A stretch of DNA of 64,000 nucleotides from Candidatus Saccharimonadales bacterium. GTDB taxonomy: Bacteria > Patescibacteriota > Saccharimonadia > Saccharimonadales > UBA10212. Location of the stretch: NCBI GenBank assembly GCA_035717985.1, contig DASTHW010000013.1, positions 7,656 to 71,655 on the forward strand, written 5' to 3'. Below the pieces are notes generated by a model. That model was not told where the DNA came from. It saw only the letters and a program-made list of their open reading frames with translations, and ran no database searches. Shown one piece after another: positions 5,496 to 60,370 of this stretch. A program made the position numbers and the translations under genes. Every line of letters starts with the position of its first letter. Within the stretch, counting starts at the first letter, position 1.

Positions 5496-7623
5496 TGCTT
5501 TTAGTTAATTCTCTCTGGGCGGCTTTCATTGATAGCTGAAGTCGGCCACGGTCGTCAATGGCCACCAACTTGACGGTTACCTTGTCGCCTTCTTTAACTA
5601 CATCGCTGGGCTTTTCCACCCTCTCTTCTTTCATCTCAGAGACATGGACCAGCCCTTCTTTACCGGGCAAAATTTCTACAAAGGCGCCAAAGTCCAGCAC
5701 GCTGACAACTCGGCAATCCTCGTAGATTTTGCCAACTTCCGGCTCGGCCGTTAGGTGGCGGATGAACTGGATAGCGGCGTCAATACTCTTTTTGTCCGGG
5801 CTGGCAATCATGACCGTGCCGTCATCCTTAATATCAATCTCAGCGCCAGTTTCGGCCACAATTTTATTGATGGTCTCACCGCCCTTACCAATGACCTCAC
5901 GGATTTTATCGGGATTAATGCTAATCGCCTCAACCCGTGGCGCATATGGGCTCATTTCACTGCGCGGGCCGGCTAGGGTGCTCAGCATGTGGCGCAGTAT
6001 CTCAGCCCGGCCGCCTTTAGCCTGGGCTAGCGCCTTAGCCATAATCTCTGGTGTAATGCCGTGCACTTTGATGTCCATTTGGAGCGCTGTAATGCCCTTT
6101 TGGGTACCGGCTACCTTAAAGTCCATGTCACCGGCAAAATCCTCAGCGCCGGCAATATCAGATAGCACTACATATTTTTTGCTATCCGGGTCAGTCACTA
6201 GGCCCATAGCAATGCCGCTAACGGGCGCTTTCAAAGGCACACCGGCATCCATCAGGCTAAGACAGCCGCTACAAGTAGCCGCCATAGATGTGGAACCGTT
6301 ACTGCTCATAATCTCAGTCACGGTACGGATAGTATATGGAAAGTCTTTTTCGTCAGGAATCACGGCTGACAAGGCCCGCTGGGCTAGAGCCGAGTGGCCG
6401 ATTTCCCGCCGGCCGGGGCTACCTAGGCGCTTAATCTCACCAGAGGCATAGCCAGGCATATTGTAGTGGTGAAAGAAGCGCCTCTCTTCGTTAGCTTCCA
6501 TGGTATCAACTAGCTGGGCGTAGCTGAGCGGCGCCAGCGTGGTCACATTCAAGGCCTGAGTCGAACCGCGGGTAAAAATGCTACTTCCGTGGGCCCTTGG
6601 TAGAACGCCTACCTCACTGGACAAGGTGCGGATTTGATCGGGTTTACGGTTATCGGGCCGCAGGCCGTCTTGCAAAATAGCCCGGCGGACTTCTTTTTTA
6701 ATGGCTGAGTCAAAAGCCTCAATATACTCCGTTAAGTCGGCCTCCTCGCCCAGCTCTCCCCTGAAATGCTCGGTTAGCTGGTCTTTCAAAGCGTCAATTT
6801 TTTGACCACGCTCTTCTTGGTTGCCGCGAGTGTCGGTCAGCTTGCCGGCTAAGAATTTATCAACGGCTTTTTGAACTGATTCGTCCGGTAAGGCTAGTTC
6901 ATAATCGCGGGCTTTGGTACCCACTTTTTTAGCCAACTCCTCCTGCAGGGCAATCGCCGGCTGGATAGATTTATGCGCCAGCTCGATAGCCGAGACCATA
7001 GTCGACTCATCTACTTCACCTGCGCCGGCTTCTACCATCATGATGGCGCCAGCCGTACCGGCTACCGTTAGATCTAGATCGCTGTCAGCTAGCTCTAAAG
7101 CAGTTGGGTAAGCCTTCAGCTTGCCGTCCACCAAACCAACTCGCACCCCAGCCACCGGCCCGTCAAACGGCGCACCAGACAGCTTTAGGGCCGTACTAAC
7201 TGCAATCATGGCCGGAATATCAGACTTTAACTCAGGATCCAGGCTTAGCACCATAGCAATAGCCTGCACTTCATCACGGTAGCCTTTCGGGAATAGCGGC
7301 CGGATCGGCCTATCTATCAGGCGGCCGGCTAAAATGGCTTCCTCGCTAGGCCGGCCCTCACGCTTAATAAAGCGGCTTCCGCTAATCTTGCCAGCGGCAT
7401 AAAAACGCTCCTCATAGTCAACGCTTAAAGGGAAAAAATCCAGGCCAGGCACCGGCGGACCAACACTAACAATAGCCTCCACTACGGTGTCGCCATAGCG
7501 GACCGTTACCGCCGAGGTGGCCTGAAAAGCCAGCCGGCCGGTCTCAAGCGTCAATTTACGGCCGCAAAAGTCGCCGCTGACACTGATTATCTTTTTACCA
7601 AAGGGGTTTATGGTACTAGCCAT
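5479..7623 (-). CDS. pnp: polynucleotide phosphorylase (PNPase)
   Basis: 714 aa with two RNase PH domains, a KH domain (EVIGKGGETINKI) and a C-terminal S1 domain. Confidence 0.95.
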   Translation of the reverse strand: MASTINPFGKKIISVSGDFCGRKLTLETGRLAFQATSAVTVRYGDTVVEAIVSVGPPVPGLDFFPLSVDYEERFYAAGKISGSRFIKREGRPSEEAILAGRLIDRPIRPLFPKGYRDEVQAIAMVLSLDPELKSDIPAMIAVSTALKLSGAPFDGPVAGVRVGLVDGKLKAYPTALELADSDLDLTVAGTAGAIMMVEAGAGEVDESTMVSAIELAHKSIQPAIALQEELAKKVGTKARDYELALPDESVQKAVDKFLAGKLTDTRGNQEERGQKIDALKDQLTEHFRGELGEEADLTEYIEAFDSAIKKEVRRAILQDGLRPDNRKPDQIRTLSSEVGVLPRAHGSSIFTRGSTQALNVTTLAPLSYAQLVDTMEANEERRFFHHYNMPGYASGEIKRLGSPGRREIGHSALAQRALSAVIPDEKDFPYTIRTVTEIMSSNGSTSMAATCSGCLSLMDAGVPLKAPVSGIAMGLVTDPDSKKYVVLSDIAGAEDFAGDMDFKVAGTQKGITALQMDIKVHGITPEIMAKALAQAKGGRAEILRHMLSTLAGPRSEMSPYAPRVEAISINPDKIREVIGKGGETINKIVAETGAEIDIKDDGTVMIASPDKKSIDAAIQFIRHLTAEPEVGKIYEDCRVVSVLDFGAFVEILPGKEGLVHVSEMKEERVEKPSDVVKEGDKVTVKLVAIDDRGRLQLSMKAAQRELTKSSGSKN

Positions 7624-9149: not shown

Positions 9150-10736
9150 TTACTTCTTGCCTTTATCGTCTTTTTTATCAGATTTATCCGGCTCGTCACT
9201 GTTCTTTTGTGGCGGCGGGATAACAACGCCTCCGCCCAAATTCATTGGCGGCGGAAACGGCGGCGGGGCCGGCATATCAGGATTGCCAAAGGCCCGCTCA
9301 ACGGCACCTCTGGCATCGTCCTCCGGCGGCTTAACCTCTTTGGAGTGCGTTAAAAAGCCCTCGTCCCGGGAGTGGTTTTCGGCCAGTGGGTCGCTGTCAG
9401 CTTCAGGTGAATCGTTATCTAAAGCGGCCGTAAAGCTATTCCTTGTGCCGCCGGCGTCTAGAAAAGAATGCGGGCCCGGCGGTTCTTCTGTCGGGCCTTC
9501 TTCCGTACCTTCTTCTTCTTGAGTGTTAGTTTTGTCTTCGGCTTCCCTCTCTTGAGCCAGTTCAGCCGGCGGTTCTTCGGGCGTAGGTTTAGACTCGGGC
9601 TCTGGCTTTTCAGGCCTGGGAGCAGGCTCTTCGGATCCGGGAGGCGGTTCTTCGTGGCTTTGCTCAGGCTTAAGCTCCAATTGATCCTCTTTGGGCGGCT
9701 GAGGCAAACTAAGCTGATTGGCGGCGGCTTTAGCCTTCATTAGAGTTCCCTCGGTATCAATCCTTATTTCAGAGGTGTCAACATCTACCTCTTGGCCGTC
9801 TTGGCCGCCGGCGCCGTGATTGACGTTAAGTGTGCCGTCGTTTTTAACTTCCGGTTTTTGATCAAATTTCTCCGGCGGGGCCGTAGGAGCGGCCGGAGGG
9901 GGTGGCGCCGCTGGCCTTGGCGCCGGCGGCTCTAGTTTGCTGACGATTAACTGCTGGTTAGCGCCGGCCGCCATCAGTTGGGCCGACATAGTCATAACCT
10001 TTGGCGAGGTTTTTAGGTTGCTGAAGCGTTTAGTCTCGGCCACAATGCCGGTTAGAAAGGCAGTAGCCATTTGGCTATCCAGCAAACTGGAGCCAAAAGC
10101 CTCACTAATACTGACAATCATCTCTGATAAACTGCTGGCCGTAGGTTCTTTCCAGTTAATTTGGCCCAGCTCCACTGCCTTACCTTCCCCGGCGTTAACC
10201 GATATCACAGCGGCGTCGTGCAAAATTTTGCCGTGGGCTAGAATCGCGGCGTCCAGCTGGCTTTGGCTGATAACACCTAGAGCCAGTACTACGTCGACAT
10301 TAAAATCACCTTGGCTGAACTGCAGATCCTTCTCGCCAATGCTGGTTTTATAAGGAGTTATATAGATTTTTACAAACTGATCTTCAATCTTGTAGCGCAG
10401 TTTGTCGGCCTTGGCCTTATCCAGCGAGATTATAAAATCCTGCAAACTGTCAGTATTGGCTTCGAGAGTTTTTTCGGGTTGCAAAAATTCAATCGTTGAA
10501 GGCACCTTGCCGGAAAAAACAGCTGTAGCGTGTTTGCCCAGCTTATTGAGCAGTAAAGTAGTGCCGATACAGGCCGCCAGCTGGTCGACCGACGGGTCTT
10601 TACTGACCGTCACTAAAATATCGGCGGCTTGTTTTAGCCTTTCTACGACCTGTTGCTTAGCCTGGGCTTCCATTTTTGTTTTATTTGGTTTTAGTTTTAG
10701 GCTTCTTATTTGACAGATTAGCACTACTGTTGACAA
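9150..10736 (-). CDS. DHH/NrnA-like phosphoesterase-fold protein with degenerate catalytic motifs and a long Pro/Glu-rich disordered C-terminal tail
   Basis: The N-terminal ~270 aa align in pattern to NrnA-type DHH-DHHA1 proteins, but motif I reads SKDPSVDQLAA and motif III has no DHH (FNVDVVLALG). The C-terminal ~250 aa are low complexity (PAPRPAAPPPPAAPTAPPEK...PPPFPPPMNLGGG...KKDDKGKK). The true start is probably the internal MEAQAKQ. Confidence 0.6.
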   Translation of the reverse strand: MSTVVLICQIRSLKLKPNKTKMEAQAKQQVVERLKQAADILVTVSKDPSVDQLAACIGTTLLLNKLGKHATAVFSGKVPSTIEFLQPEKTLEANTDSLQDFIISLDKAKADKLRYKIEDQFVKIYITPYKTSIGEKDLQFSQGDFNVDVVLALGVISQSQLDAAILAHGKILHDAAVISVNAGEGKAVELGQINWKEPTASSLSEMIVSISEAFGSSLLDSQMATAFLTGIVAETKRFSNLKTSPKVMTMSAQLMAAGANQQLIVSKLEPPAPRPAAPPPPAAPTAPPEKFDQKPEVKNDGTLNVNHGAGGQDGQEVDVDTSEIRIDTEGTLMKAKAAANQLSLPQPPKEDQLELKPEQSHEEPPPGSEEPAPRPEKPEPESKPTPEEPPAELAQEREAEDKTNTQEEEGTEEGPTEEPPGPHSFLDAGGTRNSFTAALDNDSPEADSDPLAENHSRDEGFLTHSKEVKPPEDDARGAVERAFGNPDMPAPPPFPPPMNLGGGVVIPPPQKNSDEPDKSDKKDDKGKK

Positions 10737-11195: not shown

Positions 11196-11341
11196 TCTTT
11201 TGCTAGCTTAATAAATTGCAATTTAGATAGTTTTATGTTATAGTTATTCAGCTCCGGTTGAAGGTGTTTTTGTCGGTTTTAACCTGCAAAATCTCTACTT
11301 CCCGGAGAGACGCCCGTAGCCACCTATTGAAGGGGTAACCC

Positions 11342-11638
11342 GTGCATCAAACCTGCCTTCACGGCGAAGAACCCTGCTGGGGCCACGCTGAGCCTGAGTG
11401 GGGAGCGGTTCCTGTTCCTGGGGCCGCCGGCCGCCTGAGCCGCCTAACCAAGCGGGCATTCGTGCCCCTGGTTCTGGCTCTCACAGCGGCCTACTGCGTG
11501 CACAAGACGCTGGCGGCCACGCCGGGTGTCAGTGCCGAGCGCTGGGACAACCTGCTCTGGCTGAACCTGGTGATCCTCACCTTCTCGGTGATCCTGAGGA
11601 TTCCCAAGCCGGCAAGAAGCCGCCGGAGACGGCTATAG
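11342..11638 (+). CDS. small high-GC ORF (98 aa), predicted two-TM membrane protein with basic C-terminus; foreign codon usage
   Basis: GTG start 6 nt after GAAGGGG. The second half has ~90% G/C at third codon positions (ctg, gtg, atc, ctc, acc, ttc, aac, gac), hydrophobic segments FVPLVLALTAAYCV and LLWLNLVILTFSVIL, and ends RSRRRRL. Confidence 0.45.
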   Translation: MHQTCLHGEEPCWGHAEPEWGAVPVPGAAGRLSRLTKRAFVPLVLALTAAYCVHKTLAATPGVSAERWDNLLWLNLVILTFSVILRIPKPARSRRRRL

Positions 11639-11642
11639 CTGG

Positions 11643-11694
11643 ATCCCTGGGTTCCGTCGCTCTCGACAGAGAGCGGCGGGACCCTGTTTTATTT
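11643..11694. terminator. strong intrinsic (bidirectional) terminator between cassette-1 ORF and holA
   Basis: Stem CCGTCGCTCTC (11654-11664), loop GACA, stem GAGAGCGGCGG (11669-11679), followed by GACCCTGTTTTATTT. An extended outer stem pairs GGGTTCC with GGGACCC. Confidence 0.65.
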
Positions 11695-12642
11695 AAGACC
11701 GACAATTAAGTTTTTTAAGGCTTCGTCCAAGTCGACAGCGTAAACCTTAGATTTATAGTCTGCTTCGGCGGCCAAACCTATGATTTGTTTTAGCTTAGCG
11801 GCCTCTAGCTTGCCGGCTAGGCTTTTAGCTTTATTTAAGGGGTAAGGGTTAAGTTTTGCCTCGCTGGCAATTTGGCCGGCCGGCCGGCCTCCGGCTGACT
11901 TTGCTATAGCAATAAGCTGTAACTGCCAGACAATAAGGGCCAAGATGGCCTGCGGCTCTACCTTTTGGGCTCTTTGCTCTTCGTAGAGGGTTAGCGCCTT
12001 TTTTTGGTTACCGCTGAACATGGCATCTAATAGATCAAATATTCTGCTTTGCGGTCTTTTCTCTGTTAGTAAATCAATGGATTCTTTAGTGATAGTTCTG
12101 TTATGAAGAACCAGTTTCTCCAGTTCGCTGATAAGCAGTGTCTGGCTGACACCCACTCTATCGACTAAATATCTGGCGGTGCCTAGATCCAGTTTGGCGC
12201 CAAGGCTTTCTGCCTCGGCGGTCAGCCATTTAGGTAGAAGCTCCTGCGGCAATTCGTTAAATTCTTCGAGTCTAGTTTTACTTTTCAGCACCTTGAAATA
12301 AGCCGTACGTTTATCAGGACTAGACTCTAATATTATTAAATCTACCTCTGTTGGAATTGAACTAATTATTTGTTCAATTTTATCTGTGGCCCAACTGTTA
12401 GTGCCGAGCCCGCGCAGTATAACCAGCTTGGCGCTGGTCAGAAAAGGTAGGTTAGAAATTGACGATAAAATGATGTCCGGCTCGGCACCCTCGGCGTCAA
12501 TCCGCTCGATACTCAACTCTCCATGCTGGGCGGTAAACCTTTCGACCAGCTCGTCTAGGCGGCGTTTTAAGTTAGTGTTGTTAGGGCCCGTTAAGCTGAT
12601 TATCATTTCGGACTCCTGGGTAGTTTCTGGCAGTGGGGACAA
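11689..12642 (-). CDS. holA: DNA polymerase III delta subunit (HolA)
   Basis: A delta-subunit-like N-terminal AAA-like domain and C-terminal helical domain. The likely true start is the internal Met at 12606 (MIISLTGPNN...), which forms an ATGA start/stop overlap with fpg. Confidence 0.75.
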   Translation of the reverse strand: MSPLPETTQESEMIISLTGPNNTNLKRRLDELVERFTAQHGELSIERIDAEGAEPDIILSSISNLPFLTSAKLVILRGLGTNSWATDKIEQIISSIPTEVDLIILESSPDKRTAYFKVLKSKTRLEEFNELPQELLPKWLTAEAESLGAKLDLGTARYLVDRVGVSQTLLISELEKLVLHNRTITKESIDLLTEKRPQSRIFDLLDAMFSGNQKKALTLYEEQRAQKVEPQAILALIVWQLQLIAIAKSAGGRPAGQIASEAKLNPYPLNKAKSLAGKLEAAKLKQIIGLAAEADYKSKVYAVDLDEALKNLIVGLK

Positions 12643-47309: not shown

Positions 47310-48956
47310 CTACATCATATCCATGCCGCCGCCCATACCGGCGCCCGGCATTGGCGGGGTCTTTTCGGGTATTTCGACCACCAGCGCGCCCATGGTCATA
47401 GCCGTGCCGGCTACAGAGACGGCGTTTTGGATAGCCTCTTTGGTGACCCTGGCCGGGTCAACAATACCAGCAGTTTTCATATCAATTAGTTTGGTGGCGT
47501 CGTTGACATTGACTCCCTGCCCCGGCTTAGCTTTACGGACCTGCGGTAGCCATTCGTCAGGGTTGATACCGGCATTCTCTAGCAAAATACGGAATGGCTG
47601 TTCCAGTGCTCTAAACAGCAGGCTCTGGCCAGCCAAAACCGAAGAGTGTTCGGTGCTGGGTTTGACAGCAAAGACTAGATTGATCATAGTCACGCCGCCG
47701 CCGGCCACCACACCCTCATCCAGGGCGGCTTTCACGGCCGCCACGGCATCGTCTACACGGAATTTCTTCTCTTCAATCTCGGTTTCAGTGGCCCCACCGA
47801 CTTTGATGACGGCTACCTTGCCGGAAAGCGCCGCCCGGCGCTTTTCTAACTGCTCACGGTCGTACTCACTGCTGGCAGAATCAGCCTGTTTGCTAATTTG
47901 GCTGATGCGTTCCTTGACGGCCGAGGCCGGGCCGCCACCCTCGATGATGGTAGTTTCATCCTTAGTGACAATCACCTTACGGGCAGTGCCGATTACGCTC
48001 ATATCGGCGTTTTCAAAAGTGACACCCAGCTCCTCGCTGATGACCTCGCCGCCGGTTAAGGTGGCAATGTCAGCTAAAATTTCTTTTCGGCGGTCGCCAA
48101 AGCTGGGAGCTTTAATGGCTACGGTGTTAAAGACGCCTTTTAGCTTGTTAAGAATCAGCGTACCTAGAGCCTCGCCTTCGACATCCTCAGCAATGATTAC
48201 TAGGTCTTTCTTGCCGGCGGCGGCCAGTTTCTCAAGCAGTGGCAAAAACTCCTGGACCGAGCTGATCTTTGCGTCGGTGATTAAGATGGCCGGCTTTTCG
48301 TAGACCGCCTCCATGCGTGCAGTATCCGTCACCATGTAAGGGCTAACGTAGCCGCGGTCCATGGTAAAGCCCTCAACCACTTCGCTTTCCATAGCTAGGC
48401 CCTGGCCCTCTTCTACGGTCACCACGCCGTCTTTACCGACTTTATCCATGACTTCGGCAATCAAATTGCCGATTTGCTCATCGCCGGCGCTAATAGCGGC
48501 CACCTCGGCCACCCGGTTTTTCTTACCGGCAATATCTTCACTCAAGGAACCCAGGCGGCCTAACACGTCCTCAGCGGCCGCTTCCAGGCCTTTTCGCAGG
48601 AGCAGTGGGTTGTGGCCGGCGGCAATCAGCTTATTGGCTTCATTTAAGATGTGATAGGTCAGCACCGTGACGGTAGTAGTGCCGTCACCGGCGGTGTCAT
48701 TCATTTTGGACGCGGCCTGCTTGATAAGCTCGGCGCCGACACTGTAGCCCAGCGTCTCGTCGTCATCATCGGGCAGTTCCACGCCTTTAGCGACAGTTAC
48801 ACCGTCGTGAGTAACCGTCGGGCTACCGTAGCTTTTACTAATAACTACATTGCGGCCGCGTGGCCCCATAGTGGTCTTAACAGCGTCGTAGAGCACCTGC
48901 GCCCCGCCCAGCAGGCGCCGGCGGGCATCATCGTCATAAAATACTTTTTTAGCCAT
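47310..48956 (-). CDS. groL: chaperonin GroEL
   Basis: 548 aa. MAKKVFYDDDARRRLLGGAQVLYDAVKTTMGPRGRNVVI with a Gly-Gly-Met C-terminal tail. Confidence 0.95.
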   Translation of the reverse strand: MAKKVFYDDDARRRLLGGAQVLYDAVKTTMGPRGRNVVISKSYGSPTVTHDGVTVAKGVELPDDDDETLGYSVGAELIKQAASKMNDTAGDGTTTVTVLTYHILNEANKLIAAGHNPLLLRKGLEAAAEDVLGRLGSLSEDIAGKKNRVAEVAAISAGDEQIGNLIAEVMDKVGKDGVVTVEEGQGLAMESEVVEGFTMDRGYVSPYMVTDTARMEAVYEKPAILITDAKISSVQEFLPLLEKLAAAGKKDLVIIAEDVEGEALGTLILNKLKGVFNTVAIKAPSFGDRRKEILADIATLTGGEVISEELGVTFENADMSVIGTARKVIVTKDETTIIEGGGPASAVKERISQISKQADSASSEYDREQLEKRRAALSGKVAVIKVGGATETEIEEKKFRVDDAVAAVKAALDEGVVAGGGVTMINLVFAVKPSTEHSSVLAGQSLLFRALEQPFRILLENAGINPDEWLPQVRKAKPGQGVNVNDATKLIDMKTAGIVDPARVTKEAIQNAVSVAGTAMTMGALVVEIPEKTPPMPGAGMGGGMDMM

Positions 48957-48964
48957 CTTATCTC

Positions 48965-49231
48965 CTATTTAACCTTAGCGATTATGTCTTCTTCTTTGAC
49001 CAATATATATTCTTGGTCACCAACTTTTACCTCGGTGGTGCTATAGCTTTTATAAACTATGCGGTCGCCGGCCTTAATTTCTTTAACATTTTTGCCCACG
49101 CTTAAAACTCTGGCGGTTTTAGGCTTTTCGGCCGCCTTATCCGGCAAATAAATGCCACTGGCAGTCTTAGTCACGGCCTCTTCGGCCTCGGCTACTACCC
49201 AGTCGCTTAGTGGTTGCAGTGGTGAAGACAT
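48965..49231 (-). CDS. groS: co-chaperonin GroES
   Basis: 88 aa with a mobile-loop GroES pattern. It is 8 nt upstream of groEL. Confidence 0.9.
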   Translation of the reverse strand: MSSPLQPLSDWVVAEAEEAVTKTASGIYLPDKAAEKPKTARVLSVGKNVKEIKAGDRIVYKSYSTTEVKVGDQEYILVKEEDIIAKVK

Positions 49232-49434
49232 AGGTCATCCTCCTTAGACTTGTTTAGAGATAGGGCTTACATGATTTGGTATAGCGCAAGGCCATAGCCG
49301 AGGATACGGACTGAGGCGTATATCAATACCCCGAAGGAGTACCGCAGGCTATAACACAGCGATATGCCAAATAGTGGTGGCTATTGCCAACTGGCTTAGC
49401 CAGTGGGCAGGTCAACACGGCATGTAAGTCCTAG

Positions 49435-49473
49435 CTAGCACTCATAATAGTAGAGTGCCAAATTTGCTGTCAA
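49435..49473 (-). promoter_or_regulatory. groESL sigma70-type promoter (TTGACA-17-TATTAT) overlapped by CIRCE-like operator CTAGCACTC-N9-GAGTGCCAA
   Basis: CIRCE consensus is TTAGCACTC-N9-GAGTGCTAA; the observed element is at 49435-49461. On the minus strand, TTGACA (49468-49473) and TATTAT (49445-49450) have a 17-nt spacer. Confidence 0.65.
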
Positions 49474-49504
49474 GCCCTTTAACCCGTACTTGCTTTTCCA
49501 CAGG

Positions 49505-49520
49505 AATATTGGACAATATT
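49505..49520. promoter_or_regulatory. palindrome AATATTG-ga-CAATATT upstream of the cassette-2 promoter
   Basis: Read directly from the sequence. Confidence 0.3.
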
Positions 49521-49547
49521 GCTTTCATAACCGTTCGGGTTTATACT
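49519..49547 (+). promoter_or_regulatory. sigma70-type promoter TTGCTT-17-TATACT driving the high-GC ORF at 49605
   Basis: It lies in host-like AT-rich DNA just upstream of the GC-rich cassette. The ~50-nt leader contains the palindrome CCGTCCA-atc-TGGACGG (49574-49590) and the RBS GGAGAGGGGAG. Confidence 0.5.
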
Positions 49548-49604
49548 CACTTTTAGTCCTATTCACATCTACACCGTCCAATCTGGACGGAGAGGGGAGT
49601 ACCC

Positions 49605-50048
49605 GTGCGAAAGGGCACCTTGGTCCATGGGGACCTGATGGTGGCGATCGTCCGTAGGGGACGGGGCTGGCGCGTCCGCGTCACCCGCCCCCGCGGCCAC
49701 AAGGATCTGCCGCCGCGCGTGCTGGGGCTCATGCTCCTGCATTTCGAGCACTCAGAGCTGTGCCCGAAGGGGCAGGAGTACCGGCCCGGCAGAACGCTGG
49801 ACGAGACGGGGAGGCGCTTCATCCTCGTCGACGGTCCCCTGGACGATTCGTTCTGCACCGATGAGTGCCAGCGGAGCCTGGCCTCGTCGCACGCGAGCGA
49901 CATCGTCGGAAGGTGCTTCGAAGTGGCCGCCAGCGAGGAGGCCATCACGGACAAGGTCGACGCCGGTGCGGGCGAGCCCGAGCCGGCCAAGCACTCCAGG
50001 CGCCAGCGCCTGCCGGCACGTGTCTACGCTCCCGCTCGCGCGGCCTGA
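49605..50048 (+). CDS. high-GC ORF (147 aa), hypothetical; actinobacterial-style codon usage
   Basis: GTG start 6 nt after GGAGAGGGGAG. G/C at codon position 3 is very high throughout (ctg, gtc, cgc, gac, ttc, atc...). The product is Arg-rich, MRKGTLVHGDLMVAIVRRGRGWRVRVTRPRGHKDLPPRVLGLMLLHFEHSELCPKG... Confidence 0.55.
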   Translation: MRKGTLVHGDLMVAIVRRGRGWRVRVTRPRGHKDLPPRVLGLMLLHFEHSELCPKGQEYRPGRTLDETGRRFILVDGPLDDSFCTDECQRSLASSHASDIVGRCFEVAASEEAITDKVDAGAGEPEPAKHSRRQRLPARVYAPARAA

Positions 50049-50120
50049 CCAGCAAACACCGGTCAGGCGCCCGCGCCGAACAAATTCTCTGAAAGGAGGT
50101 GTGGCCTAGGCCAGATGGGC

Positions 50121-50226
50121 GGCGAAGGCGCGGTAAGCAAACTCCGCGCCTTCGCCCCCGGCCCTTAGCCGGATAGGGCTAACCAGCCGCGTTTTCTGCT
50201 TATTTCTCACGGGCAGAAACCGCGGC
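50121..50226. terminator. cluster of GC-rich hairpins downstream of the cassette-2 ORF (bidirectional terminator-like)
   Basis: GGCGAAGGCGCGG-taagcaaact-CCGCGCCTTCGCC (50121-50156, perfect 13-bp stem) and GCCGCGTTTTCTGC-(13 nt)-GCAGAAACCGCGGC (50186-50226), followed by TTTAGTCGTTTAAT. Confidence 0.55.
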
Positions 50227-50308
50227 TTTAGTCGTTTAATAAACTTAGCTATGTATCTTTACCGGCTAAGCGCTTTTGGTTCAGTCTAATCTGAGATCCA
50301 GTTTTCTT

Positions 50309-51607
50309 TTATTCAGTGAGCAGTTCGCGGGCGATTTGCCTCTCGTCCCACGGCTCATCTACCCCGCCCATATTGCGGGTGGTCTGGTGGCCGATGCCAG
50401 CCAGCAGTACGGCGTCACCGCGCCGGGCCGAGTTAAAGGCTGTAATAATTGCCTCCCGGCGGTCGCCGATAATTTTGGTTCTGCCTTCCCCGCCGGCTTT
50501 TTTAATACCGGCATAGACTGACTGGCGGATGGCCTCGGGGTCCTCAGTGTACGTCTCATCATCAGTTAGAAAAATAAGATCGGCATTTTTGGCCGCCGCC
50601 TCGCCCATTATCGGCCGCTTAGTCTTATCGCGGTCGCCAGTAGCTCCAAACACCACCAGTACTCTTCCCACCGCCGACTTGCCGATTTCCTGCAGGGTCC
50701 GCTCTAGGGCCTCCGGTGTTACAGCATAATCAACTATCACTTCAAAGGGCTGGCCAGCTGAGATCTTTTCCATCCGGCCCGGCACCGCCTCTAGCGCCCC
50801 CACCCCTTTCTCGATCTGTTGGCGAGTTAGCCCTAAGACCTGCCCTACGCCCACGGCCGCTAAGGTGTTATAAACGTTAAAATGGCCCACTAGCTTACTT
50901 TTTATGTGAAAGGCTTGGCCGTTAAGTTCGGCCCGGTAAGAGATACCAGTCGGCTGGCTGACTACGCCCTTAGCCCTTAGTTCGCCGTGATTGATGCCGT
51001 ATAAAACTGAATGCTTGATAACTTTAGCAAACAGGTTGACGCTGTCGTCATCGGCGTTAATGACCCCTGTCCGCAGGCCGCTGTGGTGGCGATTGGTCAT
51101 TTTAAATAAACAGCGTTTAGCCTCACGGTAGCGCTTAAAGGTACCGTGATAATCCAGGTGTTCATGACTAATATTAGTTAAAACGGCTATCGAATACGGC
51201 AGGCTCCAAACCCGGTGCTGAGCCAGAGCGTGGCTGGAAGTCTCTAGCACCAGCCAGTCGATTTTTTGACGCTTCATTTCCTTAATTCGTCTTAGCAAAA
51301 TCGGCACTGGTACAGTGGTCATATGCTCTTTTTGAGGTTTAATATCAAGTCCCACGCCCCAACCGACAGTTGTCATAACGCCGACGTTATAGCCGGCCTC
51401 AAGTAACATCCGATGAATTAAAAAGCAGGTTGTTGTCTTACCGTCGGTACCAGTTACGCCGATAACATTCATCCCCCGGGCCGGAAAACCGTGAACGACA
51501 TTTAAAATAATCGCCTCGGCCCAGTGGCCGTAAGGCTCTACCAGTCTAAATAAGCGTCTAGGAATTAGCTTTTTGACTAATTTTCTGGGATTCATATCTA
51601 GATTCAT
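50309..51607 (-). CDS. MurE-like Mur ligase (UDP-N-acetylmuramoyl-tripeptide ligase family) with short N-terminal region
   Basis: P-loop GVTGTDGKTTT. The C-terminal domain DYAVTPEALERTLQ...VFGATGDRDKTKRP...FLTDDETYTEDPEAI...GDRREAI...LLAGIGHQ matches the MurE C-terminal pattern. Only ~50 aa precede the P-loop. Confidence 0.75.
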   Translation of the reverse strand: MNLDMNPRKLVKKLIPRRLFRLVEPYGHWAEAIILNVVHGFPARGMNVIGVTGTDGKTTTCFLIHRMLLEAGYNVGVMTTVGWGVGLDIKPQKEHMTTVPVPILLRRIKEMKRQKIDWLVLETSSHALAQHRVWSLPYSIAVLTNISHEHLDYHGTFKRYREAKRCLFKMTNRHHSGLRTGVINADDDSVNLFAKVIKHSVLYGINHGELRAKGVVSQPTGISYRAELNGQAFHIKSKLVGHFNVYNTLAAVGVGQVLGLTRQQIEKGVGALEAVPGRMEKISAGQPFEVIVDYAVTPEALERTLQEIGKSAVGRVLVVFGATGDRDKTKRPIMGEAAAKNADLIFLTDDETYTEDPEAIRQSVYAGIKKAGGEGRTKIIGDRREAIITAFNSARRGDAVLLAGIGHQTTRNMGGVDEPWDERQIARELLTE

Positions 51608-56949: not shown

Positions 56950-57000
56950 AAATAAATGATATCAGATTAGTGTTTGTTGATTTAATAAAGTTTTTATTGT

Positions 57001-57013
57001 ATAGTATACATGT
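57001..57013. promoter_or_regulatory. palindrome TGTATA-g-TATACA in the divergent promoter region between the HIT operon and cassette 3
   Basis: Read directly from the sequence, adjacent to a TTGACA hexamer at 57017-57022. Confidence 0.3.
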
Positions 57014-57044
57014 ACGTTGACAGCTGGCGAGCCACGTATTCCTT

Positions 57045-57111
57045 GGACCCGAATCCCGCTTGAAAAAAGCGGAACAGTGGACCCGAATCCCGCTTGAAAA
57101 AAGCGGAACAG
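57045..57111 (+). repeat. two tandem copies of a 33-bp unit GGACCCGAATCCCGCTTGAAAAAAGCGGAACAG (34-bp period), each with an internal hairpin CCGCTT-GAAAA-AAGCGG
   Basis: Copy 1 is at 57045-57077 and copy 2 at 57079-57111, with identical sequence. Copy 2 runs directly into the RBS AAAGGAA and the ATG at 57123. Confidence 0.85.
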
Positions 57112-57122
57112 AAAGGAATGAC

Positions 57123-57533
57123 ATGGCAATTTTCTACAGATGCACCAACAACGGTACGACCGCAGTCGTTCCGGAGAACGTGTACGAGCAGATCCAGGCC
57201 CAACACGACTGGTGGATGAGGGTGCAGAGGGAGACTGGCGGCCGCGAGCCGATCGAGTCGCCGGAGTACCCCAAGCCCATCTTCACCTTCGTGCGGAGGG
57301 AGCACCTCGGTCCGGACCTCCACCTCAGGAACTACGTGACCGCCAGCCTCGAGCTGATGGACACGCTCCTGCAGGGGCATGTGGTCTTCAGCGGGGAGTT
57401 CTACGTGCCGTTCAGCAATAGTATCGAGCTGAACGACCACGACCCGCGTGCTGAAGGCGAGAGGACCTTCCGGACGACACTCGAGCAGGCCATCAAGGCC
57501 TTCGAGCTCGTCCGGGCAGGCACTACGCAGTAA
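57123..57533 (+). CDS. high-GC ORF (136 aa), hypothetical; actinobacterial-style codon usage
   Basis: ATG after AAAGGAATGAC. Third-position G/C is near-universal (acc, gtc, gag, atc, ttc, ctc, gac...). Product MAIFYRCTNNGTTAVVPENVYEQIQAQHDWWMRVQRETGGREPIESPEYPKPIFTFVRREHLGPD... The ORF-track entry 57060..57533 begins at a TTG inside the AT-rich repeat and is not favoured. Confidence 0.55.
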   Translation: MAIFYRCTNNGTTAVVPENVYEQIQAQHDWWMRVQRETGGREPIESPEYPKPIFTFVRREHLGPDLHLRNYVTASLELMDTLLQGHVVFSGEFYVPFSNSIELNDHDPRAEGERTFRTTLEQAIKAFELVRAGTTQ

Positions 57534-57574
57534 GAGCAGGCGGGTTCGCCGCTCATCGTACAGCCGGGATCGGT

Positions 57575-57615
57575 GCGGGCGCGCTCTCAGCGCGCCCGCA
57601 TCCCCGGACTTTCTA
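57575..57615 (+). terminator. GC-rich hairpin terminator after the cassette-3 ORF
   Basis: GCGGGCGCGC-TCTCA-GCGCGCCCGC, a perfect 10-bp stem, followed by ATCCCCGGACTTTCTATTTGT. Confidence 0.55.
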
Positions 57616-58930: not shown

Positions 58931-60370
58931 ATGCGCTTTTTGAATGATAACCAGCCCAACTATGAGCTGACTTATAACGACGTGTTTTTAGTCCCTAGCC
59001 ATAGTGACATTGATTCGCGGCTAGAGGTTGATCTAGCTAGCCCCGGCCCGATTGATACTCATCTGCCGCTAGTCGTCGCCAATATGAACGCAGTCGCCGG
59101 CAAGCGGATGGCCGAGACGGTAGCCCGCAGGGGCGGCCTAGCGGTTTTACCACAGGATATACCGCTGGAAGTACTGGCCGACATGATAGCTTACGTTAAA
59201 TCCCGGCATTTAGTCTTTGAGACACCCCTGACGCTGGGCGCCGATAACACCATCGCCGAGGCCTTGAATATCATCCATAAACGGGCTCATCAGGCCATAA
59301 TAATCATTGACAGCCGAGGCCGGCCGGTGGGCATTTTTACTAGTAGCGACTCAGCCGGTCATGATTTATTTAGCCAGGTAGGGCAGGTGATGAGTACAGA
59401 TTTAATTAGTCTACCGGCTAATCTGGCTCCAAAAGCTATGTTTGATAAATTGAGCCAGCAAAGATTAAACGTGGCGCCGGTGCTATCGGGCGGCAAAATG
59501 GTGGGTGTAGTCACTAAAAAAAGCATTTTGCGCTCTGGCCTTTACCAACCGGCAGTTGATAAGAATAAACGGTTAATGGTGGGCGCGGCCGTCGGCATTA
59601 ACGGTGATGTAGCTAAAAAGGTCGAGCAAGTCCTGCGCGCTGGGGCCGACGTACTGGTAATTGACACCGCTCACGGCCACCAGCAAAAAATGTGCGCGGC
59701 CATTAAAAAGGCACGAGCAGTTAGCACCCGCGTGCCGATTGTCGCCGGCAATGTGGTGACGGCCCAAGCCGTCCGCGATCTGGCCAAAGCCGGCGCCGAC
59801 ATCATAAAAGTGGGCGTCGGGCCAGGCGCGATGTGCACCACCCGAATGATGACTGGGGTTGGCCGGCCCCAGTTTAGTGCCGTGACGGAGTGCGCTAGCG
59901 CCGCCCGCGAGCTGGGCAAATACATCTGGGCCGACGGCGGTATCCGCTGGCCTAGGGACGTGGCGCTGGCTCTAGCGGCTGGCGCCTCCAGTGTAATGTT
60001 TGGCTCCTGGTGGGCTGGCACTTATGAAAGCGCCGCCGACATCCAGGCTGATAGTCAAGGACGATTGTTTAAAGAAAACTTTGGTATGGCCAGTAAGCGG
60101 GCTGTCAAAAACCGGAACGCCGGCCAAGCGGCCTATGATCAAGCCAAGCGCGAATTATTTGAAGAAGGTATCAGTAAAAGCCAGATGTTTTTGCACCCAG
60201 AGAGACCCGGCGCCGAAGATATCATCGACCATATCATTGCCGGGCTCAGAAGTTCGATGACTTACGCCGGAGCTAGAACTATCGAGGAATTTGCCCAAAA
60301 GGCGGTAGTCGGTGTGCAGTCAGGAGCCGGCTACGAAGAGGGCAAAGCCCTGCCGGCCAGCTGGAATTAA
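58931..60370 (+). CDS. guaB: IMP dehydrogenase (IMPDH/GuaB family, with CBS pair)
   Basis: N-terminal LTYNDVFLVPSHS, a CBS domains region and a catalytic loop GVGPGAMCTTR; 479 aa. Confidence 0.85.
   Translation: MRFLNDNQPNYELTYNDVFLVPSHSDIDSRLEVDLASPGPIDTHLPLVVANMNAVAGKRMAETVARRGGLAVLPQDIPLEVLADMIAYVKSRHLVFETPLTLGADNTIAEALNIIHKRAHQAIIIIDSRGRPVGIFTSSDSAGHDLFSQVGQVMSTDLISLPANLAPKAMFDKLSQQRLNVAPVLSGGKMVGVVTKKSILRSGLYQPAVDKNKRLMVGAAVGINGDVAKKVEQVLRAGADVLVIDTAHGHQQKMCAAIKKARAVSTRVPIVAGNVVTAQAVRDLAKAGADIIKVGVGPGAMCTTRMMTGVGRPQFSAVTECASAARELGKYIWADGGIRWPRDVALALAAGASSVMFGSWWAGTYESAADIQADSQGRLFKENFGMASKRAVKNRNAGQAAYDQAKRELFEEGISKSQMFLHPERPGAEDIIDHIIAGLRSSMTYAGARTIEEFAQKAVVGVQSGAGYEEGKALPASWN

Follow-up and report, generated by a model that had tools for sequence, protein, structure and literature searches.

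A GC-rich, hairpin-capped gene unit beside groES in Saccharimonadales is probably native and vertically inherited rather than a recent foreign cassette

Atypical GC content is routinely taken as a mark of recent horizontal transfer, and the closest described counterparts of the gene examined here are genomic islets and ORFan genes, with which it shares a sharp compositional anomaly, small size and a variable locus in a housekeeping neighbourhood. The gene encodes a basic protein of 147 amino acids (aa) and lies between groES and murE in a 64,000-nucleotide (nt) stretch of a Candidatus Saccharimonadales bacterium (GenBank assembly GCA_035717985.1, contig DASTHW010000013.1, positions 7,656 to 71,655), the whole of which we call the window. 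In contrast to islets, this groES-site unit is syntenic among relatives, apparently vertically inherited and unameliorated in composition, its promoter, leader and terminator have been kept alongside it, and neither a donor nor a mobility gene was found for it. A first-pass annotation had read the gene as a foreign high-GC cassette newly inserted at this position; that reading is contradicted by diverged orthologs that occupy the same site with the same architecture and high GC, and by the failure to find a donor. We propose instead that it is probably a native, lineage-specific, self-contained gene unit, inherited vertically within one Saccharimonadales clade, whose GC-richness is maintained.

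Other described systems resemble parts of the unit. Integron gene cassettes likewise combine a small open reading frame (ORF) with conserved inverted repeats behind it and hold diverse contents, and two of the species surveyed here carry tandem units. The groES-site units differ in having their own promoter and Shine-Dalgarno (SD) sequence and a fixed position beside groES, with no intI within +/-4 kb; by reading, no attC core (GTTRRRY) follows either hairpin of the unit, and the hairpins covary as RNA stems with U-rich tails. The 5' hairpins of ompA, ermC and aprE are mRNA-stabilising or translational stem-loops, and together with 3' protective hairpins they recall the covarying 5' stem-loop before the SD and the strong 3' hairpins of our unit, in which pairing is conserved over sequence. 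The 5' hairpin, however, is predicted to lie ~20 nt from the 5' end rather than at it, and the structure spans the whole coding sequence (CDS). In comparison with RNA thermometers of the ROSE and fourU kinds, the SD is unpaired here and the GUG start codon lies in a predicted 4-5 bp hairpin, and no thermometer family of Rfam was matched. In every genome with the unit, it is divergent from a groES promoter under the control of the controlling inverted repeat of chaperone expression (CIRCE), the operator of HrcA. It is nonetheless distinct from the HrcA/CIRCE regulon: CIRCE overlaps the groES promoter only, the palindromes of the unit are unrelated to CIRCE, and the protein is not HrcA. Mycobacterial PE_PGRS genes, a polymorphic GC-rich family, offer an analogy in being hypervariable, lineage-restricted and GC-richer than the genome, whereas the groES-site protein has neither repeats nor Gly-Ala tracts, is single-copy, small, predicted to be cytoplasmic and unrelated in sequence. 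What is already familiar about our locus is a lineage-specific accessory gene at a variable site; what is unusual is that the GC-richness stays unameliorated across deep divergence and goes together with a conserved design of the transcript, capped by hairpins. GC-rich minigenes of Saccharibacteria were not found described in a search of the literature.

The sharp jump in composition near the ribosome-binding site, described in the first-pass annotation, is real. At 49500-49599 GC is 0.43; the next hundred nt (49600-49699) reach 0.72, and values of 0.64-0.76 persist until ~50200, against a window mean of 0.504. A check of codon periodicity gave a coding signal for the ORF, with GC at the first, second and third codon positions (GC1, GC2 and GC3) of.71,.52 and.87, a signature seen in this frame only. 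Its GC3 of 0.872 compares with 0.542 +/- 0.042 (maximum.63) in 37 long ORFs of the window, an excess of 7.8 standard deviations. The family genes in relatives have GC of.63-.70 and GC3 of.74-.91, and the groES genes of those loci have GC3 of.38-.55. The longer loci of the relatives have an overall GC of.48-.55; three contigs of 1.2-1.7 kb, of which the gene makes up a large share, have.56-.60.

The 147-aa ORF is a genuine protein-coding gene of a lineage-specific orphan family. A word-indexed search returned a sole database match at 100% identity, 'hypothetical protein VFP35_02065 [Candidatus Saccharimonadales bacterium]', encoded on a MAG contig of 137 kb. This public annotation is 136 aa long and begins at an internal ATG, 33 nt (11 codons) too late; we consider its start wrong because the SD and GTG are conserved in all orthologs and the N-terminus MRKGT is conserved as well. 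The annotated starts of two other family members, P0002 and P0010, are likewise wrong. An exhaustive phmmer search of 1.84 billion representative proteins found four true relatives (P0002, P0004, P0005 and P0006; E 1e-11 to 4e-5, 29-39% identity) and two low-complexity repeat proteins unrelated to the family, and a profile search, in which homologs score E 1e-29 to 1e-50, added P0008, P0009 and P0010. Homologs outside Saccharimonadales were found neither among the 1.84 billion representatives nor in phage and plasmid sequences (tblastn) or viral-contig collections. A sub-family alignment searched against metagenome contigs gave no match, and a DNA pattern for the conserved SD, GTG and N-terminus matched 120 loci, one of which was real and proved to be a duplicate of a family locus already known (L009). 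There was no match for the ORF in Pfam, NCBIfam, PHROGs or PADLOC, and none in a PDB profile search; no described protein family or fold was matched. Checked by homology, the protein predicted in the first pass is the product of a real gene with rare homologs (30-39% identity) and a confident AlphaFold2 fold.

Conservation within the family is concentrated in a few segments: the N-terminus (M-[RP]-K-G-[TI]-L), a strand followed by an R-P-R-G..D-[LV]-P motif, a strand with the pattern R-F-I-L-[LV]-[ED]-x-P-L-D, and an Arg-rich C-terminal tail, predicted to be disordered, that ends ...R-V-[HFY]-x-P-x-R-[SA]-x-G-x-[VI]-x-A-x-A. All members are basic, with isoelectric points (pI) of 8.6-9.8. The AlphaFold2 model, made from an alignment of only eight sequences, has a mean predicted local distance difference test score (pLDDT) of 83.8 and a predicted template modelling score (pTM) of 0.71. 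It shows a beta-beta-alpha-beta-alpha topology, with strands at residues 12-18, 21-29 and 71-78, helices at 37-49 and 87-121, and a disordered stretch from 123 to 147.

All ten recognisable homologs lie at the same site in other Saccharimonadales, divergent from groES-groEL just past CIRCE (loci L001, L002-4, L005, L006-8, L009, which equals L134, L044, L211/L212 and L213). Downstream follows either a dimethylargininase-family (DDAH) gene and then murE, or murE directly; L009 and L213 share the window's arrangement, with a convergent murE directly after the gene. Family members keep the promoter, leader hairpin, SD, GTG start, 3' hairpins and high GC together. An assembly chimera was rejected, the same architecture being present in independent assemblies (Logan, JGI, ENA and GTDB genomes). 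The setting given in the first pass, between the groESL control region and the 3' end of a MurE-like gene, was confirmed by locating groES, CIRCE and murE.

A GroES-anchored scan of GTDB species representatives yielded 80 Saccharimonadales loci, 72 of which were usable. In about 19 of the 72 species, the gap between groES and murE or DDAH contains an island of high GC that exceeds its locus by +0.11 to +0.21; in 16, mostly in another GroEL clade, the gap is empty, at 69-309 bp, and the remainder hold other content. The locus is therefore variable among relatives, but the gene is not an insert peculiar to this genome. In a neighbour-joining tree of GroEL, the family members and most loci with other high-GC ORFs are interleaved in one major clade. 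The exceptions are L045, L071 and L074, which fall in a second major clade with otherwise mostly empty or ordinary sites, and L078, which branches alone. These other high-GC ORFs encode 100-165 aa with GC3 of.70-.90; homology to the family was not detected by iterated hidden Markov model (HMM) searches or hhalign, and six of them gave no match in Pfam. They share the design of the family units: a TTGACT-17-TATACT promoter comes first, then an SD (for example GGAGTACC) with GTG after it, and at the 3' end a GC hairpin precedes a terminator of the form GCCGCG...CGCGGC-TTT. Based on this shared architecture, on matches to a terminator model described below and on the interleaving in the GroEL tree, we think that most of them would be orthologs diverged past recognition rather than replacements by unrelated cassettes. 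Two loci, L014 (~5600-6900) and L027 (~5700-6900), carry two tandem high-GC units upstream of groES, each with a promoter and a hairpin-B-like terminator, as if entire units had been duplicated.

Divergence of the family protein scales with that of the genes on either side, which fits vertical inheritance. It is 55-61% identical among the trio L002/L005/L006, where MurE is 84-87% identical, and 30-48% identical in other pairs, where MurE is 51-67% identical. Non-synonymous divergence (dN) in the trio is.31-.38 for the family gene and.10-.12 for murE, so that the family gene changes about 3 times faster at non-synonymous sites. The proportion of synonymous differences (pS) in the flanking groES, murE and tsaD is.52-.84, near or at saturation for most pairs. 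Since the flanks have reached this state and yet GC3 of the gene stands at.74-.91 against ~.55 in the host, we regard its GC-richness as maintained rather than as the relic of a donor. Such a persistent excess beside saturated neighbours means that some local force acts, either selection on RNA structure or biased gene conversion. With an excess of 15-20 GC points held at a fixed site across saturated lineages, composition-based calls of horizontal transfer would be wrong for this gene.

The upstream region has one order of elements in all orthologs: CIRCE, a TTGNCN-17-TATAAT promoter, a gap of 20-26 nt, a hairpin, an AGA..GGAG SD, 5-8 nt and the GTG. The promoter hexamers named in the first pass are present, and relatives support the claim that the unit has its own promoter in AT-rich DNA: at the same position they have TTGACT, TTGACC or TTGTCC, a 17-nt spacer, and TATAAT or TATACC, all in register. 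A promoter scan made no call in the window at this position because the -35 hexamer matches only three of six positions, and the reality of the window promoter rests on its conservation in relatives. The palindrome next to the SD, taken at first for an operator, is better read as a covarying RNA stem-loop. A perfect hairpin of 4-8 bp (at least 5 bp in most) ends 13-16 nt before the start codon in 7/7 orthologs, with stem arms that differ from one to the next (CCGTCCA, CCGCC, GCCGCC, CCCAC, CTCGGC, CTCCCC and CCCC) and loops that are often UUCG or GAAA. MAFFT with RNAalifold gave 0 pairs for these stems, which were compared instead by per-sequence folds and manual register. A comparable hairpin occurs in shuffled sequences at a rate of 0.10-0.43 per sequence, with a product of ~6e-6. 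Because pairing is kept by compensatory changes while the sequence is free, an RNA stem-loop rather than a protein operator is indicated. A second palindrome, AATATTG-ga-CAATATT at 49505-49520, exists in the window and is absent from relatives, in which only the A-rich tract and the TTGAC of the -35 hexamer are conserved within this span. Neither 7-bp palindrome is remarkable alone, because such perfect palindromes with loops of up to 4 nt are common by chance (42 in the window, 15-28 in shuffles).

The ribosome-binding site was correctly recognised in the first pass and lies one base from where it had been placed (49589-49599 instead of 49588-49598). In the folds, the SD is unpaired within a single-stranded linker between two hairpins, and its A-G-A..GGAG motif is found in all orthologs. 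The second of these hairpins contains the start codon. An equivalent hairpin of 4-5 bp is predicted in 8/9 family members, as GUGC..GCAC or GUGCC-AAAA-GGCAU, and may explain the conserved N-terminus M-[RP]-K-G-[TI].

The 3' untranslated region (UTR) is built along similar lines. The perfect GC hairpin reported earlier, hairpin A, was recovered exactly as described, and its position is occupied by a GC hairpin of 11-15 bp in 7/7 orthologs, with a different sequence each time and a fully covarying stem. Perfect stems of at least 10 bp occur three times in the 64 kb; two are GC-rich, and both of these lie in 3' UTRs of high-GC units. The following hairpin B, announced as a 14-bp hairpin at 50186-50226, is present, with perfect runs of 7 and 9 bp split by a 1x1 mismatch. 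Of the cells in its alignment, 88% are paired, whereas sliding the 3' partners leaves 38-54%, and compensatory changes are seen in five pairs; its sequence is better conserved than the protein. A covariance model of hairpin B (R1), built from six family loci and searched in ~1 Mb, matched L084, L014 (twice, once after each tandem unit) and L027 at E<=5e-4, and L046 and L070 weakly; the ORFs of L084, L014 and L027 are not recognisably homologous to the family despite this match at the same locus. Everything else that R1 matched in the ~1 Mb was weak (E>=0.05), sparse and unrelated in position. In the window the hairpin is followed by UUUAGUCGUUU, a weak T tract, and the scan called no terminator; better tails are found in L009 (GUUUUUAAUUUUU) and L044. 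Hairpin B is likely an intrinsic terminator. An AGGAGG box lies 45-85 nt past the stop codon in 5/7 orthologs (the window, L001, L002, L006 and L009). A 17-codon ORF behind this SD-like box was rejected as a gene, not being conserved in relatives.

Structure is pronounced throughout the transcript. Folding of the window 3' UTR (~195 nt) has a z of -5.1, and the native CDS is more stable than its dinucleotide shuffles (z = -2.4). It also folds better than synonymous-codon shuffles in 7/7 orthologs (z -1.8 to -5.1), none of 40 such shuffles reaching the native energy in 6/7, whereas six ordinary housekeeping segments used as controls gave z of -1.1 to +0.1. The minimum free energy per nt is -0.45 to -0.54 for the family CDSs and -0.29 to -0.36 for the housekeeping controls. 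These values are suggestive of selection for a highly structured transcript, though not decisive. Rfam at gathering thresholds returned only tRNAs for the whole window, and in a permissive Rfam search of 49230-50320 no match rose above chance level (E >= 0.8); 'Pseudomon-groES', one of these, scored 15.8 bits where the gathering score is 50.

How did the unit come to be where it is? A recent horizontal transfer could be argued from the jump of ~20 GC points, the exceptional GC3 and the absence of a Pfam or NCBIfam match for the protein, and it is highly improbable all the same: at least six other lineages, whose flanks are at or near synonymous saturation, have orthologs of 30-39% identity at this very site, no donor was found, and the borders bear no mobility signatures, with no integrase or transposase among the ORFs within +/-4 kb, no terminal inverted repeats and no target-site duplication. 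There is also no tRNA within 6 kb of the unit. A foreign origin that is ancient deserves more weight, although we consider it unlikely. The CDS could have been captured once, at the base of the clade, from a high-GC donor such as an actinobacterial host, wired to a native promoter and kept GC-rich since then by selection or biased conversion. The coincidence of the compositional boundaries with the start codon and the terminator agrees with such a capture, as does the largely single GroEL clade in which the high-GC state is found, the other clades having mostly empty or ordinary sites; moreover, with its GTG start and GC3 of up to.91 the gene resembles those of actinobacteria. Against it stand the lack of any non-Saccharimonadales homolog in the exhaustive protein search and the co-evolution of the leader and terminator elements with the gene. 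It would explain the origin of the gene and not its anomaly, because an active force against amelioration is still required. Another explanation regards the gap between groES and murE or DDAH as an integration hot spot that would repeatedly take up, duplicate and exchange unrelated high-GC minigenes, each provided with a promoter and a hairpin terminator of its own, the window gene being one mobile cassette among them. The high-GC islands of about 19 species, whose ORFs show no homology to the family by HMM searches or hhalign, the tandem units in L014 and L027, high-GC genes on the opposite strand at the site in some species, and units of the same design at two further places in the window would all fit. 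We find this doubtful, given that the borders lack the marks of mobility just listed, that divergence within the family tracks the flanking genes, that no DNA is common to the window's three units, and that family and other ORFs are interleaved in the GroEL tree with a common terminator hairpin and promoter design, for which divergence is the better account. Finally, the functional product could be a structured non-coding or dual-function RNA, with the ORF incidental or secondary and GC serving the fold. The strong folding of the 3' UTR, the synonymous-shuffle result in all orthologs and the better conservation of hairpin B than of the protein point that way, but all orthologs retain a strong three-base periodicity (GC3 >> GC1 > GC2) as well as the SD and GTG, the proteins still reveal their homology where DNA is saturated, a protein fold is predicted with confidence and no Rfam family is matched, all of which makes such an RNA very unlikely as the main product.

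Several findings also weigh against a native, vertically inherited unit with maintained GC. Foreign origin at the base of the clade is compatible with the data. The site is not universally occupied, being empty in 16/72 species and filled with unrelated-looking high-GC ORFs in others, and this variability implies gain, loss or replacement on long time scales. The window promoter has a poor -35 hexamer (3/6 against TTGACA; 5/6 for the -10 and 8/12 in total). The ratio of dN to synonymous divergence (dS) in the trio, ~.55-.7 for the family gene, is a rough figure because GC3 of ~90% compresses dS, which is poorly estimated. The synonymous-shuffle signal is unspecific, since a GC-rich part of guaB in the window gives z = -2.3 and the other high-GC ORFs give mixed values of 0 to -3.4, several of them close to -1 or 0. 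Selection on RNA is not required either, because GC1 and GC2 are also raised, as they would be if a protein under weak constraint were exposed to a bias of mutation or conversion.

If the native, vertically inherited unit that we favour is real, it would be monocistronic and transcribed from a sigma-70-type promoter back-to-back with the CIRCE-controlled groES promoter. Its 5' UTR would present the SD in a single-stranded linker between the covarying stem-loop and the hairpin with the GUG start, and the 147-aa CDS would be followed by a 3' UTR of ~195 nt with a mini-hairpin, a long GC hairpin and the conserved terminator hairpin. The predicted product is a small basic cytoplasmic alpha/beta protein with a disordered Arg-rich C-terminal tail and the conserved end ...R-V-x-x-P-x-R...A-x-A. 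The gene would stay at 63-70% GC in genomes of ~48-55% GC by active maintenance, for which we infer selection for an unusually structured, 'armoured' transcript as the most likely force; alternatively, the locus may be prone to recombination and subject to GC-biased gene conversion.

Saccharimonadales are ultra-small parasitic bacteria and obligate epibionts of mostly high-GC Actinobacteria, and to our knowledge their host-interaction factors are largely unknown. Our best guess is that the product might be an interaction protein under fast evolution, such as an effector or else a regulator linked to stress, with the C-terminal tail as a recognition signal; the small basic fold, the disordered Arg-rich tail with its conserved end, the rapid evolution and the restriction to an epibiotic lineage suggest it. 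An effector could possibly be a substrate of a type IV secretion system (T4SS) recognised via the C-terminal tail, as the tail motif and fast evolution hint circumstantially; the T4SS is reported to be essential in Saccharimonadia and appears to be co-opted for functions other than conjugation (PMC12102498). Alternatively, the A-x-A C-terminus and the groESL neighbourhood raise the possibility of a protease-controlled stress factor. Being clade-wide, hypervariable, separately promoted and equipped with a conserved C-terminal tail, the small protein is a concrete candidate for host interaction. We also know of almost no experimentally mapped regulatory signals in the phylum, for which the covarying leader, start-codon and terminator hairpins could be used to study gene expression.

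The features of the unit and its immediate neighbours are collected in Table 1.

Table 1. Features of the groES-site unit and adjoining elements (positions refer to the window)
Feature	Position	Strand	Description
groES	48965..49231	-	divergent neighbour, then groEL 47310-48956
CIRCE (CTAGCACTC-N9-GAGTGCCAA)	49435..49461	.	HrcA operator of the divergent groES promoter; kept in every related locus
Promoter TTGCTT-17-TATACT	49519..49547	+	sigma-70-type; -35 49519-49524, -10 49542-49547; A/T-rich tract before it
5'-UTR stem-loop CCGTCCA-atc-TGGACGG	49574..49590	+	7 bp, ends 14 nt before the start codon
Shine-Dalgarno region GGAGAGGGGAG	49589..49599	+	GGGGAG core 49594-49599, 5 nt before GTG
CDS of the 147-aa basic protein	49605..50048	+	GTG start; pI 9.3, 20 Arg; GC 70%, GC3 87%; homologs
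Start-codon hairpin GUGC-GAAAGG-GCAC	49605..49618	+	GUG start forms the 5' arm; predicted
Mini-hairpin CUCU-GAAA-GGAG	50087..50100	+	carries an SD-like AGGAGGU box in the 3' UTR
Hairpin A	50121..50156	+	perfect 13-bp GC-rich stem (50121-50133/50144-50156), 10-nt loop
Hairpin B AGCCGCG-U-UUUCUGCUU ... GGGCAGAAA-C-CGCGGCU with T-rich tail	50185..50243	+	stem 50185-50227; conserved, covarying
murE	50309..51607	-	convergent neighbour, 432 aa; TIGR01085 382 bits against a cutoff of 257, match from profile position 71

The gene is flanked by groEL and groES on one side and murE on the other, all on the minus strand, with tsaD and valS beyond murE. The groES promoter, called by the promoter scan on the minus strand, has its -35 hexamer TTGACA at 49473-49468 and a -10 hexamer TATTAT that ends at 49444, and it overlaps CIRCE. 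CIRCE marks the left border of the unit and stands outside the unit's own control region, ending 58 bp upstream of its -35 hexamer. MurE is only 428-448 aa long in the window and the orthologous loci, and its alignment to TIGR01085 starts well inside the profile, which indicates that the N-terminal Mur ligase domain is missing. In DDAH-keeping relatives (L002 4343-4420, L005 1055-1125, L006 1514-1585, L084 and L054), a TATACT follows directly after the terminator hairpin of the small gene and the DDAH ATG lies only 6-10 nt beyond it. This arrangement suggests a leaderless DDAH mRNA with the -35 region inside the terminator hairpin.

The groES leader has a feature of its own, an insert of ~190 nt between CIRCE and the groES SD (window 49232-49432, minus strand, in the groES 5' UTR). 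Both the window and L006-8 have it, L212 has a related version, and L001, L002, L005 and L009 lack it. Homology between the copies of the window and L006 is seen in their shared core GTATTGATATACG, and their closing stem covaries (GGACTTACATG/CATGTAAGCCC against GGGCTTTAGCG/CGCTGAAAGCCC). RNAfold gives -69.3 kcal/mol with z = -1.9, and Rfam has no match; the insert may be an undescribed cis-regulatory RNA of groESL. An imperfect 12-nt direct repeat, GATAGGGCT[T/A]AC, occurs within this insert at 49259-49270 and again between hairpins A and B at 50172-50183. It is probably due to chance, and the GC-rich segment is not bracketed by its copies.

Two other high-GC units were seen in the window. 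One, at 11283-11700 between rpsT and holA, has a TTGCAA-17-TATAGT promoter and a terminator hairpin at ~11647-11695, and its SD and start, GAAGGGGTAACCC-GTG, closely resemble the GAGGGGAGTACCC-GTG of the groES-site unit. Its ORF (11342-11638) encodes 98 aa with GC of.66, GC3 of.76 and a synonymous-shuffle z of -3.5, and contains two long hydrophobic stretches that, judged by eye, resemble transmembrane helices. The other, at 57000-57610, adjoins tRNA-Ser. Its ORF runs from an ATG at 57123 to 57533 (136 aa, VFP35_02100) with GC3 of ~.81, preceded by a tandem direct repeat of ~33 nt (57045-57111) with a CCCGCTT/AAGCGG hairpin in each copy and followed by a perfect 12-bp GC hairpin at 57574-57600. 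The sole homolog of this third unit, P0012 (L090), is 48% identical, has GC3 of.76, is GC-rich relative to its flanks and carries the same leader motif; its neighbourhood differs, an inorganic pyrophosphatase gene lying next to it. Neither ORF gave a match in Pfam or PADLOC. Among the three high-GC units no similarity is seen at the DNA level, so that they are not copies of one repeat, and the second and third show that the phenomenon is not confined to the groES site.

One extension of these observations, which we offer as speculation with little chance of proving right, is that the clade carries a class of 'GC-armoured' minigenes whose host-like, actinobacterial composition is actively maintained. 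Such genes would encode effectors against the high-GC host, possibly T4SS substrates, or transcripts that survive or function in a host-derived environment. In each of them, a native, AT-rich promoter would be followed by a leader hairpin and a strong SD, then by a hypervariable ORF of 60-70% GC, in many cases with a GTG start, and by GC hairpins; the groES-site unit would be the most widespread member. High GC is also found at two less distinct places in the window: a 91-aa ORF at 9468-9743 is borderline with GC3 of.75, and the GC-rich stretch inside guaB mentioned above (59691-60066) reaches.685 and folds better than its synonymous shuffles.

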